Shown here: positions 2,526-57,421 of the stretch, one piece after another
Numbering within the stretch: the stretch's first letter is position 1
How the letters are laid out: the number at the start of each line of letters is the position of its first letter
Notes under the pieces: generated by a model
Told to the model about the DNA's origin: nothing
Seen by the model: only the letters and a program-made list of their open reading frames with translations
Database searches by the model: none
Program-made: the position numbers and the translations under genes
Assembly: GCF_055900595.2 (NCBI RefSeq)
Contig: NZ_CM148325.1
Reading direction: 5' to 3' (one strand)
Length of the DNA stretch: 64,000 nucleotides

Positions 2526-2610
2526 TGGTGCCGAAGGCCGGACTCGAACCGGCACGTATTTCTACGGTTGATTTTGAATCAACTGCGTCTACCGATTTCG
2601 CCACTTCGGC
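2526..2610 (-). tRNA. leuX: tRNA-Leu (anticodon CAA)
   Basis: Reverse complement reads GCCGAAGTGGCGAAATCGGTAGACGCAGTTGATTCAAAATCAACCGTAGAAATACGTGCCGGTTCGAGTCCGGCCTTCGGCACCA: 85 nt with CAA in the anticodon loop, a long variable arm and an encoded CCA end. Confidence 0.92.
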
Positions 2611-28552: not shown

Positions 28553-31249
28553 TTACTGCCAGCCGTAACGACGGCTATAGAACCCTTTCACCAACTGGGT
28601 TAACGTCATATACCCTGCCAGAATCGCAACCAGCCACGGGAAATAGCTTAACGGCAGCGCCTGCAGTTGCAGATAACTGGCCAACGGCGAAAACGGCAAT
28701 GCGATCCCGACTATCATCACAATCACGGTCATGATCATTAACGGCCACGATGCACAGCTCTGAATAAACGGTACACGACGGGTACGGATCATATGTACAA
28801 TCAGCGTTTGCGACAGTAATCCCACCACAAACCAGCCCGACTGGAACAGCGTTTGCGTTTCCGGCGTGTTGGCATGGAATACCCACCACATCAGGCAAAA
28901 CGTCAGAATATCGAAGATCGAACTGATCGGTCCGAAGAAGATCATAAAGCGCCCCAAATCCGCCGGATTCCAACGCTGAGGCTTTTGAATTTGCTCGTCG
29001 TCGACGTTATCAAACGGGATCGCCACCTGTGACACATCGTACAGCAGGTTCTGGATCAGTAAGTGTAAAGGCAGCATCGGCAGGAAGGGCAAGAAAGCAC
29101 TCGCCACCAGCACGCTGAACACATTACCGAAGTTAGAACTCGCCGTCATTTTTATGTATTTCAGCATGTTGGCGAAAGTCCGGCGTCCTTCAATAACCCC
29201 CTCCTCCAGCACCATCAGGCTTTTTTCCAGCAGGATGATATCAGCCGCTTCACGGGCAATATCTACCGCACCGTCCACAGAAATGCCGATATCCGCAGCG
29301 CGTAAGGCGGGCGCATCATTAATACCATCGCCCATAAAGCCAACCACATGCCCTTCGCGCTTTAGCAAGGTCACGATGCGTTCTTTATGCATCGGCGTCA
29401 GGCGAGCAAACAGCGTGGTGCGCTGTGCAAGATTTGCCAGTTCGTCGTCAGATAGCGTTTCAATATCACTACCAATGACCACCTCTCCCGCGTCCAGTCC
29501 CACTTCATGGCACACTTTCGCCGCCACTAACTCGCTGTCGCCAGTAAGGATTTTCACGGTAATGCCACTCGCTTTTAATGCCTTCAGTGCCGGAGCTGTT
29601 GTCTCTTTCGGCGGATCAAGGAAAGCAATATATCCTTCGAGGATCAGGTCGGATTCATCCGCCCGCTGGTAATCCCCTTCACGTGCTGGCAGGTATTTCG
29701 TCGCCACCGCAACCACGCGCAGCCCCTGACGATTCAGCGTATCAGTAACGCGCTTAATCTTACGCAGTATGATGTCATCAAGCGGCACAATCTCACCATT
29801 GTGACGCACCTGCGAACACACATTGAGGATTTCCTGCAATGCGCCTTTGCAAACCAGTTGATGATGTTCGGTATTCTCTGCCACTACCACCGACATCCGG
29901 CGACGCTCGAAATCAAACGGAATCTCATCAATTTTTTGCCAACGACTGGCCAGCGAGCGCGCTGACTCTTCATCCGTACCTTCGAGCACCGCTGTATCAA
30001 GCAGGTTTTTAAGTCCGGTCTGATAATGACTGTTCAACCACGCGCTATGCAGCACGCGTTCGCTGGTTTTACCGGAGATATCGGTATGATTCTCCAGCAC
30101 AATTTTATCCTGCGTCAGGGTGCCGGTTTTATCAGTGCACAGAATATCCATAGCGCCAAAGTTCTGAATGGCATCCAGATGTTTGACGATCACTTTCTGT
30201 TTCGACAGCTTTACGGCACCACGCGCCAGCGTCGAAGTGACAATCATCGGCAACATTTCCGGCGTTAAGCCTACCGCGACCGAAAGCGCAAACAGTGCCG
30301 CTTCCCACCAGTCACCTTTGGTGTAACCGTTGATCAGCAACACCACCGGAGCCATCACCAGCATAAAGCGAATCAGCAGCATACTGACGCGGCTAATCCC
30401 CTGCTGAAAGGCATTCGGCTCGCTTTCCTGCTCACTAACACGCCCCGCCAGTTGACCAAACCAGGTGTTGGCTCCTGTAGCAATCACCATTGCTTGTGCC
30501 GTGCCGCTCACCACGGTGGTGCCCATAAAACACAGGGTGTCGCACTCCAGCGGATTGCTGTGCTCCGGCTGGCGAGTGGTTGCGGCTTTTTCTACGGGCA
30601 GAGACTCACCGGTTAACGACGCCTGAGCGACAAACAGATCCCGCGCCTGCAAGATACGTAAATCTGCCGGGATCATATCCCCCGCCGCCAGTTTTATAAT
30701 ATCGCCGGGCACCAGCTGGTCGATCGGGATCTCCAGCCAGCCATTTTCGCCTTTGTCGTTAATTACGCGCAGCACCGTCGCGGTATTGCTGACCATCGCT
30801 TTCAGGGCATCTGCCGCTTTAGTGGAACGTGCTTCCTGAATAAAGTTCAGCAACGTAGAAATAGCGACCATTAGCGCGATAACACCTGCGGCAAATAAAT
30901 CTTCCGTGGCGTAAGAAATAGCACCGAGAATGGTGAGCAAAATATTAAAGGGGTTGCGATAGCAGACCCATAAATGCACCCACCACGGCGACGGTTGTTG
31001 CGCGGGTAATTTATTTTCACCATGTTGTTCGCGGGCAGATTCCACTTCCGCCTGATTTAACCCTTCCGGATGGGTATTGAACGTTTTCCATAATTCCTGT
31101 TCTGGCATCACCGCCATTTTCAGGCAATGCGCACTTAAGGACGGCGGGACCGCCGTATTCACTGTCTGCTGCGCGCCAGGCAATGGATCGCGATGAACCA
31201 GACGGGAAGGTAAATGGCGAATGAGCCGGGTAAAAATTTCTTTAAACAT
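28553..31249 (-). CDS. mgtA: Mg2+-importing P-type ATPase (898 aa)
   Basis: P-type ATPase phosphorylation motif DKTGTLT and hinge motif GDGINDAPAL. Confidence 0.95.
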   Translation of the reverse strand: MFKEIFTRLIRHLPSRLVHRDPLPGAQQTVNTAVPPSLSAHCLKMAVMPEQELWKTFNTHPEGLNQAEVESAREQHGENKLPAQQPSPWWVHLWVCYRNPFNILLTILGAISYATEDLFAAGVIALMVAISTLLNFIQEARSTKAADALKAMVSNTATVLRVINDKGENGWLEIPIDQLVPGDIIKLAAGDMIPADLRILQARDLFVAQASLTGESLPVEKAATTRQPEHSNPLECDTLCFMGTTVVSGTAQAMVIATGANTWFGQLAGRVSEQESEPNAFQQGISRVSMLLIRFMLVMAPVVLLINGYTKGDWWEAALFALSVAVGLTPEMLPMIVTSTLARGAVKLSKQKVIVKHLDAIQNFGAMDILCTDKTGTLTQDKIVLENHTDISGKTSERVLHSAWLNSHYQTGLKNLLDTAVLEGTDEESARSLASRWQKIDEIPFDFERRRMSVVVAENTEHHQLVCKGALQEILNVCSQVRHNGEIVPLDDIILRKIKRVTDTLNRQGLRVVAVATKYLPAREGDYQRADESDLILEGYIAFLDPPKETTAPALKALKASGITVKILTGDSELVAAKVCHEVGLDAGEVVIGSDIETLSDDELANLAQRTTLFARLTPMHKERIVTLLKREGHVVGFMGDGINDAPALRAADIGISVDGAVDIAREAADIILLEKSLMVLEEGVIEGRRTFANMLKYIKMTASSNFGNVFSVLVASAFLPFLPMLPLHLLIQNLLYDVSQVAIPFDNVDDEQIQKPQRWNPADLGRFMIFFGPISSIFDILTFCLMWWVFHANTPETQTLFQSGWFVVGLLSQTLIVHMIRTRRVPFIQSCASWPLMIMTVIVMIVGIALPFSPLASYLQLQALPLSYFPWLVAILAGYMTLTQLVKGFYSRRYGWQ

Positions 31250-31389
31250 AAGGAGTCCCTCCGCACTGACTGAAACAGTGCAGAAATGTCTTCAGGCGTG
31301 GCGAAGCCTTACCTGAAGGTAATAAAGCTGAGCTGGGACGTTAAAACGTCACGGCCTTACGCATCCGGTAACGCCGTGAAAAGACGGGC
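31250..31389 (-). promoter_or_regulatory. mgtA 5' leader between mgtL and the mgtA start (Mg2+/proline-responsive attenuation region)
   Basis: 140-nt untranslated segment between the mgtL stop and the mgtA ATG; regulatory role taken from established mgtA biology, structure not evaluated here. Confidence 0.45.
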
Positions 31390-31443
31390 TTACCGGAAAA
31401 GTTTTAATCTCCGTCGAGGGAGAGGCGTGGGATCAGGTTCCAT
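31390..31443 (-). CDS. mgtL: mgtA leader peptide (17 aa, proline-rich)
   Basis: Minus-strand ATG at 31443 encodes [17 protein letters not shown] then stop; it is the C-terminal part of the 68-aa ORF-track entry 31390..31596. Confidence 0.75.
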
Positions 31444-31625
31444 ATAACCTCCGGTAAGTGAAAAAAGCGCCGCAAATAATAAGGAGAATCCAATAATATT
31501 CGTGGCATTTATGGCGATATAATACCTACTGGCAACTAAACCAACGATAAACCAGACTTTACCCATTGCTGAATGCACGGGTAAAGTTAGGCTCAAATAA
31601 TGAAACGCAATTACGGGACAACAGG

Positions 31626-32573
31626 ATGCAAAATCGGCTGACCATCAAAGACATCGCGCGCTTAAGCGGCGTGGGGAAATCTACGGTTTCCCGAGTGCTG
31701 AATAACGAAAGCGGCGTGAGTCAGCGCACGCGCGAGCGCGTGGAAGCAGTGATGAATCAGCATGGATTTTCCCCTTCCCGCTCCGCGCGCGCTATGCGTG
31801 GGCAAAGCGATAAAGTGGTCGCCATCATTGTTACCCGTCTGGATTCGTTGTCAGAAAATCTCGCCGTCCAAACCATGCTGCCAGCGTTCTATGAACAAGG
31901 TTACGACCCGATCATGATGGAAAGTCAGTTTTCTCCGCAATTAGTTGCCGAACATTTGGGGGTGCTGAAACGGCGTAATATCGACGGCGTAGTGCTGTTC
32001 GGTTTTACCGGCATAACCGAAGACATGTTAGCCCACTGGCAGTCATCGCTGGTTCTGCTGGCGCGTGACGCAAAAGGCTTTGCTTCGGTCTGTTATGACG
32101 ACGAAGGGGCAATCAAAATCCTGATGCAACGGCTGTATGACCAGGGGCATCGTAATATCAGTTATCTCGGCGTACCGCACAGTGACGTGACGACCGGTAA
32201 GCGACGTCACGAAGCCTACCTGGCGTTCTGCAAAGCGCATAAACTGCATCCCGTTGCCGCTCTGCCAGGCCTTGCGATGAAGCAAGGCTATGAGAACGTA
32301 GCAAAAGTGATTACGCCTGAAACTACCGCGTTACTGTGCGCAACCGACACGCTGGCACTTGGCGCAAGTAAATACCTGCAAGAGCAACGCATCGACACCT
32401 TGCAACTGGCGAGCGTCGGTAATACGCCGTTAATGAAATTCCTCCATCCGGAGATCGTCACCGTTGACCCAGGTTACGCCGAAGCTGGACGCCAGGCGGC
32501 CAGCCAGTTAATTGCGCAGGTAACCGGGCGCAGCGAACCGCAACAAATCATCATCCCTGCCACCCTATCCTGA
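31626..32573 (+). CDS. treR: Trehalose operon repressor, LacI family (315 aa)
   Basis: Translation MQNRLTIKDIARLSGVGKSTVSRVLNNE... with helix-turn-helix; the ORF-track start at 31566 is an over-extension. Confidence 0.9.
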   Translation: MQNRLTIKDIARLSGVGKSTVSRVLNNESGVSQRTRERVEAVMNQHGFSPSRSARAMRGQSDKVVAIIVTRLDSLSENLAVQTMLPAFYEQGYDPIMMESQFSPQLVAEHLGVLKRRNIDGVVLFGFTGITEDMLAHWQSSLVLLARDAKGFASVCYDDEGAIKILMQRLYDQGHRNISYLGVPHSDVTTGKRRHEAYLAFCKAHKLHPVAALPGLAMKQGYENVAKVITPETTALLCATDTLALGASKYLQEQRIDTLQLASVGNTPLMKFLHPEIVTVDPGYAEAGRQAASQLIAQVTGRSEPQQIIIPATLS

Positions 32574-41866: not shown

Positions 41867-41970
41867 GCCGGATGCGGTGCACCTGTAGGCCTGATAAGAC
41901 GCATCAAGCGTCGCATCAGGCACTATGCTCAAATGCCGGATGCGGCGTGAACGCCTTATCCGGCCTACAC
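41867..41970. repeat. BIME / REP cluster between yjgA and mpl
   Basis: gccggatgcggtgcacctgtaggcctgataagacgcatcaagcgtcgcatcaggcac and gccggatgcggcgtgaacgccttatccggcctacac. Confidence 0.75.
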
Positions 41971-48116: not shown

Positions 48117-48198
48117 TGCGCCAGATAAGACACAACAGCGTCGCATCAGGCATCTCGCACAACCGCCGGATGCGGCGTGAATGCCTTATCCGGCGGCC
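48117..48198. repeat. BIME / REP cluster between ytfR and ytfQ
   Basis: gcgccagataagacacaacagcgtcgcatcaggca and gccggatgcggcgtgaatgccttatccggcggccc. Confidence 0.7.
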
Positions 48199-57245: not shown

Positions 57246-57421
57246 GTTTTGCATTTATCAGTCGTCTGAATTTTAACCCTCTGGCGACTTTACAGTACCT
57301 TACGCTATACTAGCCACTGAAAATGCCGGTTCACTTTCTTCGAATCGGCTTTCAATGTGTATTTCACACAAATTAATCAACTTCCCCTTCCGAGGATCTG
57401 GCCTGAAAGGTCGGATAAGAT

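Follow-up and report, generated by a model that had tools for sequence, protein, structure and literature searches.

An intact mgtL leader peptide and its RNA switch upstream of mgtA in an Escherichia coli genome, concealed within a longer open reading frame

Is a 68-codon open reading frame just upstream of the Mg2+ transporter gene mgtA a gene in its own right, or does it conceal the regulatory leader peptide MgtL together with the RNA switch that the peptide serves? The question arises in a stretch of E. coli DNA of 64,000 nucleotides (the window), where the mechanical ORF list holds a minus-strand entry at 31390..31596, 68 aa long and opened by a TTG, whose 17 C-terminal residues are MgtL. 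The original prediction held that the 17-codon mgtL lies intact in front of mgtA, concealed in this 68-codon entry, and the ORF list bears this out. Small regulatory ORFs like mgtL vanish inside longer mechanical ORFs, so that the main value of the case is an annotation check, and a scan that picks out mgtL-type small ORFs is behaving correctly. The region itself is the known E. coli mgtL leader and RNA switch 5′ of mgtA; it had been labelled known biology, and rightly, the locus being the ordinary, well-studied K-12 mgtL element. The mgtL-mgtA pair is a textbook leader-peptide case: elongation of the peptide signals the state of cytoplasmic Mg2+ (and of proline decoding), and a Mg2+ importer is controlled accordingly.

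The mgtL coding sequence comprises 17 codons and a stop (31390..31443, minus strand), the start ATG being at 31443-31441 and the stop TAA at 31392-31390, and it encodes a 17-residue peptide. A Shine-Dalgarno (SD) sequence GGAGG (31452-31448, minus) is located 4 nt 5′ of the ATG, and the mRNA across mgtL reads CUUACCGGAGGUUAU-AUG GAA CCU GAU CCC ACG CCU CUC CCU CGA CGG AGA UUA AAA CUU UUC CGG UAA. A frameshift or the loss of proline codons would speak against a functional mgtL; instead, proline codons 3, 5, 7 and 9 are all intact and in frame on the minus strand, the acidic residues 2 and 4 of the N-terminal EPDP motif are likewise intact, and no frameshift relative to K-12 was found. Both the peptide and its DNA are identical to K-12 b4702, and RefSeq places mgtL (WP_001387276.1) and mgtA at the same positions in strain 2013C-4282, the one genome of the complete E. 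coli set to match a 551-nt query around the site at 100% identity. When the 68-aa frame served as a carrier sequence for the Pfam test of the 17-aa MgtL, PF17059 (MGTL) matched with 36.1 bits against a cut-off of 25, over profile positions 1-17 of 17; the match covered residues 52-68 alone, leaving the first 51 residues of the frame without a match. On the downstream side, mgtA (28553..31249, minus; RefSeq) encodes a Mg2+-importing P-type ATPase of 898 aa, which scores 1603 bits against TIGR01524 (magnesium-translocating P-type ATPase; cut-off 610.75). The arrangement of mgtL upstream of mgtA is thereby recognized by three family models, namely Pfam MGTL, TIGR01524 for MgtA and Rfam RF01056 for the RNA described below.

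How close is this locus to the K-12 prototype? The two share the peptide, the mgtL DNA, the SD sequence, stems A, B and C of the switch, the 140-nt spacer, the PhoP box, and the gene order treR / mgtL-mgtA. The alignment with the K-12 mgtA leader, which had been proposed as a check, showed zero base differences from 31503 to 31335, such that the SD sequence, mgtL and the switch stems are base-for-base equal. The two sequences differ only by substitutions at three positions of the distal leader (A instead of T at 31334, C instead of T at 31280 and T instead of A at 31269), at two positions near the transcript start (31509, or +3, and 31504, or +8) and at two more, 31532 and 31528, that lie between the PhoP box and the −10 hexamer, and by a 2-nt deletion near 31611/31610, beside the treR start. 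Judged by this alignment, the locus is the K-12 element itself rather than a relative of it. By analogy with the K-12 and Salmonella literature, MgtL would be translated here and would regulate mgtA.

Where does the transcript begin? A PhoP box GGTTTATCGTTGGTTTA is present at 31537..31553 on the minus strand (−42..−26 relative to the inferred start site) and is identical in K-12. As in PhoP-activated promoters, a direct repeat (T/G)GTTTA-N5-(T/G)GTTTA stands here in place of a −35 hexamer, and the pattern KGTTTA-N5-KGTTTA has a single match in the 64-kb window, where 0.02 would be expected by chance. A candidate −10 hexamer TATTAT of the PhoP-dependent mgtA promoter P1 can be read at 31519..31524 (minus). 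A sigma-70 promoter scan of 31150-31750 returned nothing and there is no −35 hexamer, which is what activator dependence would lead one to expect; for such a promoter an empty scan is uninformative, and we relied on the PhoP box and on published numbering. In the E. coli mgtA 5′ region, GUAAGGCCGUGA occupies nt 152-163 and a C is nt 175 (PMC11552253). We found GUAAGGCCGUGA at 31360-31349 and a C at 31337 (minus strand), and for this reason we place the +1 of the mgtL-mgtA mRNA at 31511 on the minus strand, plus or minus 1 nt. The leader from +1 to mgtA is thus roughly 262 nt long. The spacer between the mgtL stop and the mgtA ATG (31389..31250) was counted as exactly 140 nt, the length given for it in the original prediction and also that found in K-12 (4467485..4467624). 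The interval first proposed for study, 31250-31443, does contain mgtL and the spacer, but the functional unit begins upstream of 31443, since the leader starts near 31511 and 31458-31448 holds both the mgtL SD sequence and the 5′ arm of stem A.

Does the RNA around mgtL retain the switch? Rfam RF01056 (Magnesium-II, the mgtA Mg2+-responsive leader) gives a full-length match at 31343..31458 on the minus strand, with 125.8 bits against a gathering value of 40 and model positions 1-115 of 115 covered, and it is the sole Rfam family match in 31150-31700 at E<=1. The 5′ arm of stem A, CUUACCGGAGG (31448..31458, minus), which holds the mgtL GGAGG, is supported by the Rfam alignment, the minimum free energy (MFE) fold and RNAalifold, and the 3′ arm, UUUCCGGUAAG (31389..31399, minus), which contains the mgtL stop codon, by the Rfam alignment and folding. 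Stem-loop B, ACGGCGUUAC...GUAAGGCCGU (31351..31377, minus), is recovered by Rfam, the MFE fold, covariation and RNAalifold, and stem-loop C, UCCGGUAA/UUACCGGA with an inner CCGU/ACGG (31364..31397, minus; −18.6 kcal/mol), becomes the MFE fold once stem A loses its 5′ arm. Bases 31397-31390 serve stem A as part of its 3′ arm and stem C as its 5′ arm; likewise, stem B shares bases of its 5′ arm with the 3′ arm of stem C (31371-31364). The sequence CCGGUAA, including the mgtL stop, can pair backwards with CUUACCGG to give stem A, leaving stem B possible, or forwards with UUACCGG to give stem C, abolishing stem B. In these folding models, A+B and C are two mutually exclusive conformers that share CCGGUAA/UUACCGG.

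The entire leader (31512..31247) folds at −90.5 kcal/mol (z = −5.1) into A+B, stem A pairing 31458-31450 with 31397-31389 around nearly all of mgtL and stem B lying within 31379-31349; the helix energies are −32.9 kcal/mol for A+inner+B vs. −24.8 kcal/mol for C+inner. The folding of 31443..31250, which had been suggested as a way to see the alternative stem-loops, yielded stem C (31397-31390 with 31371-31364); stem A cannot arise in this interval because its 5′ arm at 31458-31448 lies outside. When the ribosome footprint was masked, with the P site at Pro3, 5, 7, 9 or the last codon, and the RNA was refolded, stem A stayed closed regardless. The translation-coupled model is therefore not reproduced by thermodynamics alone; since such a shortcut cannot capture the steric or kinetic effect of a ribosome, this masking is not used as evidence.

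To place the element in an evolutionary context, we used a DNA-pattern scan of 100,044 species genomes, which gave 100 matches. Of these, 46 proved to be mgtL-type loci (45 different sequences) and belonged, among others, to Escherichia, Salmonella, Citrobacter, Klebsiella, Raoultella, Kosakonia, Leclercia, Phytobacter and Yokenella. Roughly half of all matches came from GC-rich Actinobacteria and MAGs, for example Glycomyces and Streptomyces; they had no stop codon nearby and were dropped as chance hits. The pattern demanded M-[DE]-P-[DE]-P-x-P-x-P-R and left the third positions, the C-terminus and the downstream sequence free, so that any conservation of the proline codons in this comparative set is circular, the search itself having required those residues. 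In the 45-sequence alignment including the window (about 15 genera), 95.3% of the cells in stems A+B together with the hairpin H0 (see below) are paired; nine pairs show compensatory changes, and none of 500 shuffles reached the observed value. RNAalifold independently gives the A+B+H0 structure. For stem B, 5 of the 10 pairs are compensatory across genera, and 98.2% of the cells are paired. The pairs in the cores of stems A and C are invariant among the 45 leaders, and covariation is thus neither for nor against them. Invariance of both cores is what a doubly paired sequence would show.

The coding sequence varies in its own manner. Across the 45 leaders, codons 2-10 of MgtL hold their amino acids while third positions vary, with synonymous variation at codons 3, 6, 7 and 9 (at codon 9, CCG is used in 20 leaders, CCT in 17, CCC in 5 and CCA in 3). 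The C-terminal codons differ both in sequence and in number, giving peptides of 14-17 aa, and the UAA stop nevertheless keeps its place within CCGGUAA in 44 of the 45. This pattern suggests that the N-terminus of MgtL matters as a peptide, and the 3′ end as RNA and as a position where the ribosome stops. Within the species, 5425 of 5426 complete E. coli genomes yield a match to the 551-nt query. Identity of 99% or more is seen for the 116-nt Rfam element in 5417 of 5424 genomes, whereas the surrounding 551 nt attain it in only 13. Because of this disparity, the 116-nt element is, as far as sequence identity can tell, under very strong purifying selection within E. coli. What the window adds is solely that the element is intact, and very strongly purified by selection, in a minority E. 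coli lineage.

In light of these data, we are highly confident that the region is the 5′ leader of the E. coli mgtL-mgtA transcript and that it would work by the published translation-coupled switch, the best supported of the mechanisms considered. Every test of the identification came out in its favour, and no result speaks against it. According to this mechanism, PhoP-P bound at 31553-31537 would drive transcription from about 31511. With ample cytoplasmic Mg2+ and sufficient prolyl-tRNA, EF-P and EttA capacity, ribosomes would clear the N-terminal EPDP and the later prolines and reach the stop; a ribosome at the mgtL stop would cover CCGGUAA while RNA polymerase makes stem B, thereby favouring the stem B (OFF) fold and a premature end of transcription before mgtA, near 31298. 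At low Mg2+, or when proline decoding is slow, ribosomes would stall or fall off in the first codons, CCGGUAA would be left free, stem C would form, and transcription would run on into mgtA. The link from translation to fold and the termination step are taken over from the literature by analogy, and they fit the sequence, the K-12 identity and the alternative folds with their conservation and covariation, all observed here.

The published evidence is as follows. Efficient mgtL translation at high Mg2+ leads to stem A/B (OFF) and premature termination, and inefficient elongation over the proline and acidic codons at low Mg2+ leads to stem C and mgtA expression (PMC11552253). The E. coli ribosome aborts translation within MEPDPT, the more so at low Mg2+ or without bL31, and the EPDP effect requires an empty exit tunnel, i.e., an N-terminal position (bioRxiv 2021.02.02.429294). 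Ribosome drop-off occurs at EPDP; EttA, an ABC-F factor, stabilises ribosomes on mgtL and so represses mgtA transcription, which is higher in an ettA deletion strain (PMC11282234). The proposal that the proline codons of mgtL control read-through into mgtA agrees with this literature but needs widening, as the acidic residues of EPDP count too, in ribosome destabilisation and in the response to EttA.

How might transcription end before mgtA? In K-12, Term-seq places 3′ ends at 4467490 and 4467576 (PMC7815308, supplement 3), which correspond to 31384 in the window, 6 nt past the mgtL stop, and to 31298, 49 nt before the mgtA ATG and within the hairpin H1. For the 3′ end at 4467576, the surrounding region was called significant for Rho termination (bicyclomycin-based Rho score 1.56), and the intrinsic-terminator score is low, at 1.46 (PMC7815308). 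A search of the leader (31250-31511) for intrinsic terminators revealed no terminator-like site, and premature 3′ ends without an intrinsic terminator, as the K-12 Term-seq data give, are characteristic of a uORF-controlled Rho-dependent attenuator. Such an attenuator should also have a Rho loading (rut) region that is rich in C, poor in G and open in the OFF fold; in this leader, the ratio of C to G amounts to 1.5-2.1 over 31461-31382 and to about 1.5 over 31351-31272. Rho dependence of the mgtL-mgtA leader is firmly established for Salmonella, whereas in E. coli it is a matter of dispute: in a ChIP assay with rho R66S, E. coli mgtA scored 1.0 for Rho, which argues against it (PMC5499598), and according to a 2025 review the Rho mechanism 'may not be conserved in E. 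coli'. We consider that termination would probably be Rho-dependent in E. coli as well.

What does the leader peptide actually sense? With four proline codons among its first nine, mgtL might chiefly report proline or charged tRNA-Pro, for example under hyperosmotic stress, over Mg2+, in the manner of amino-acid attenuators. Up-regulation of mgtA under proline limitation was proposed by Park et al. 2010, as summarised in PMC5740661; the same summary cites another study by which mgtL translation may not respond to cytoplasmic proline. Later work credits Mg2+-dependent elongation at the proline and acidic codons (PMC11552253, PMC11282234, bioRxiv 2021.02.02.429294), and the leader is without an intrinsic terminator. 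We therefore regard proline as the chief signal as rather unlikely, though still deserving of some weight; as an extra input it is compatible with the translation-coupled switch driven by Mg2+.

A more radical proposal dispenses with translation altogether: the leader would be a pure Mg2+-binding riboswitch, in which Mg2+ alone moves the RNA from C to A+B, with mgtL translation dispensable or secondary. Rfam does classify RF01056 as a riboswitch, A+B is the thermodynamic ground state, and in a ribosome-free purified system a rise in Mg2+ from 2 to 20 mM raises Rho termination on a Salmonella mgtA template (PMC10085680). Against this stand the MgtL N-terminus, kept across genera despite synonymous variation, and the stop held in the switch sequence, both of which argue for selection on translation, as well as the genetics that link regulation to mgtL translation, bL31 and EttA (PMC11552253, PMC11282234, bioRxiv 2021.02.02.429294). 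A riboswitch acting on its own is, in our estimation, improbable, although direct Mg2+ action and the translation-coupled mode are compatible with each other. The Mg2+-sensing RNA structure that the original prediction invoked therefore stands as far as the switch folds are concerned, which were recovered, but a direct action of Mg2+ on the RNA is not agreed upon in the literature (PMC11552253).

As for the 68-codon ORF (31596..31390) being a true gene with the MgtL sequence simply as its C-terminus, its unbroken frame and TTG start count for next to nothing against the facts that the TTG (31596) and the in-frame ATG (31566) precede the inferred start site by 85 and 55 nt, are also 5′ of the PhoP box, and hence fall off the P1 transcript, given a +1 at 31511; that no in-frame ATG, GTG or TTG occurs between this +1 and the mgtL ATG, and no SD sequence precedes either upstream start; that Pfam matches residues 52-68 alone and a search of the 68-aa frame against NCBIfam matched no model; that RefSeq annotates the 17-codon gene at the locus and no longer frame; and that EPDP destabilisation needs an N-terminal position (bioRxiv 2021.02.02.429294), contrary to a long extension. 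Nor is the open frame 5′ of the mgtL ATG conserved: it has 67 codons here, 105 in K-12 and 16 in E. albertii, and it ranges from 5 to 119 codons across the 47 other enterobacterial leaders compared (the 46 genome-scan loci and K-12). The 51 added codons begin 5′ of the PhoP-dependent start site, and mgtL is, as had been anticipated, easily missed in ORF calls. An antisense ORF on the plus strand (31286..31447, 53 aa), without a family match in NCBIfam or Pfam, was treated as a chance frame.

The translation-coupled switch thus being the preferred reading, it is instructive to compare the leader with related systems. The mgtL-mgtA leader of Salmonella enterica, the experimentally dissected model, has the same architecture, with the CCGGUAA switch and the stems. 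Its peptides (subspecies arizonae and diarizonae) read MDPEPTPLPRWR(V/I)FLFR and differ from the one in the window in that residues 2 and 4 are swapped (DPEP vs. EPDP), residue 11 is W rather than R, and the C-terminal residues are different; stem B carries compensatory differences relative to the window. The corL-corA leader of E. coli and Salmonella (PMC11552253) likewise has a uORF and mutually exclusive stems A/B and C, and efficient translation of its uORF represses a Mg2+ transporter gene through Rho-dependent termination. It differs in having another peptide with a single conserved proline, a UUG start and a constitutive rather than a PhoP-dependent promoter, and its sequence is non-homologous to the mgtL leader, Rfam giving RF01056 alone here. 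With the trpL, hisL and pheL attenuators, the mgtL leader has in common a short leader ORF whose translation rate chooses between RNA hairpins and so determines downstream read-through. Those attenuators have runs of cognate codons and an intrinsic terminator (a GC hairpin followed by a U-tract), whereas the signal sensed by mgtL is mainly Mg2+-dependent elongation. The mgtL leader works similarly to a trpL-type attenuator, yet it falls outside that class because it lacks the intrinsic terminator hairpin with a U-tract.

Beyond stem B, the distal leader on the minus strand contains three hairpins. H0, GACGU-UUUA-ACGUC (31337..31350), has compensatory changes in 3 of 5 pairs and belongs to the RNAalifold consensus; H1, CUUCAGGU...GCCUGAAG (31290..31318), was found by folding and has compensatory changes in 6 of 11 pairs; and H2, CUGCACUG...CAGUGCGG (31261..31283), with 5 of 8, abuts the SD sequence of mgtA, GGAGGG (31262-31257). 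In the 38 leaders aligned over this part, H0, H1 and H2 together show compensatory changes at 14 of 24 pairs, and none of 500 shuffles reached the observed value. Two of the substitutions relative to K-12 are located in H2: the C at 31280 converts a U-G pair to C-G, the majority state in other Escherichia, and the substitution at 31269 sits in the loop.

Could the distal leader also act on the translation of mgtA? The motif GUCCCUG (31339-31333) may serve as an anti-SD sequence by pairing with AGGGAC (31260-31255) at the mgtA ribosome-binding site, a suggestion from RNA folding that we hold to be quite unlikely. The long-range GUCCCU/AGGGAC pairing occurs in the MFE fold, and 91.2% of its cells are paired in the 38 leaders; the covariation test gave it no support, since 315 of 500 shuffles did equally well. 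Such a pairing is not described in the literature searched, a set that excluded primary structural papers. If true, mgtA would be under translational control on top of the known transcriptional switch, and the T-to-A change at 31334 would cost the pairing one base pair. The proposed pairing would also compete with H0, which uses the same GUC. The motif is nearly invariant across leaders and reads GUCCCAG in this strain, and the 31334 A allele is common to 180 of 5426 E. coli genomes.

Between mgtL (31390-31443, minus strand) and mgtA (28553-31249, minus strand), the distal leader carries three conserved hairpins at 31261-31350 on the minus strand, H0 (31337-31350), H1 (31290-31318) and H2 (31261-31283). 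Compensatory changes across genera were found in 14 of the 24 base pairs that make up these hairpins, and the Rho-associated 3′ end of the K-12 transcript falls within H1, at the position equivalent to 31298.

Directly past H0 lies a nearly invariant GUCCCUG (31333-31339, minus strand), which finds its complement in the AGGGAC of the mgtA Shine-Dalgarno region (31255-31260, minus strand). The two are paired in the minimum free energy fold, and this pairing and hairpin H0 exclude each other. In the set of 38 leaders used for distal-leader pairing, 91.2% of the cells were paired, and comparison with shuffles gave no covariation support for the GUCCCUG/AGGGAC pairing, because the shuffles scored equally well. 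Within GUCCCUG, at position 31334 (minus strand), the window strain bears an A. K-12 has a T there, and so do 43 of the other 44 enterobacterial leaders in the alignment; by an exact 37-nt query, 180 of the 5426 complete E. coli genomes share the A.

Over the 551 nt spanning 31150-31700, only 13 of 5425 E. coli genomes were at least 99% identical to the window, and most of the 5425 were about 97% identical; the 116-nt mgtL switch was at least 99% identical in 5417 E. coli genomes. The window belongs to a minority E. coli lineage. Among the roughly 5400 E. coli matches to the mgtL region, three were to records labelled as plasmids.

On the other side of the leader, the start region of treR (31569-31628, plus strand) was considered by combining the RefSeq annotation with a comparison to K-12. 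In the strain that is 100% identical over the 551-nt query, RefSeq annotates a TreR of 334 aa that begins from a CTG codon at 31569 (plus strand), whereas the K-12 protein comprises 315 aa and starts from an ATG equivalent to 31626. The longer N-terminus looks like an annotation artefact, since relative to K-12 the window has a 2-nt deletion at 31611/31610, which opens the frame upstream of treR.

A natural loss of the mgtL-mgtA locus was encountered in E. coli GCU-H1 (locus L103; NZ_CP178558.1, 4193-5200), where an IS1 element immediately follows the treR-proximal intergenic DNA; the missing stretch comprises mgtL, mgtA and every gene from there as far as a truncated member of the Rid family that adjoins bdcA. 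In a metagenome-assembled genome of Leclercia sp. UBA7405 (L040, 1103-1235), mgtL encodes the 14-aa MDPDPAPLPRRRAL* and ends at an earlier in-frame TAA, two codons ahead of the usual CCGGUAA stop, the sole such case in the 45 aligned leaders. The mgtL search pattern also matched a recurring LDPEPRPVPRRP... stretch with no stop codon nearby (loci L003, L009, L010, L071, L078, L079, L096 and L098, with Glycomyces and Dactylosporangium among them). All the named loci of this kind are from Actinobacteria, and the stretch is presumably a piece of conserved coding sequence unrelated to mgtL.

Elsewhere in the window, a tRNA-Leu (CAA) gene at 2526-2610 (minus strand) corresponds, by its position relative to mgtA, to leuX, a known integration site for islands. 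The Rfam matches above the gathering score in the rest of the window were Ysr276 (13625-13819, 185.8 bits), ES239 (61958-62080, 149 bits), STnc450 (57303-57360, 77.2 bits) and three copies of naRNA4 (14655-14730, 41888-41965 and 48119-48195).
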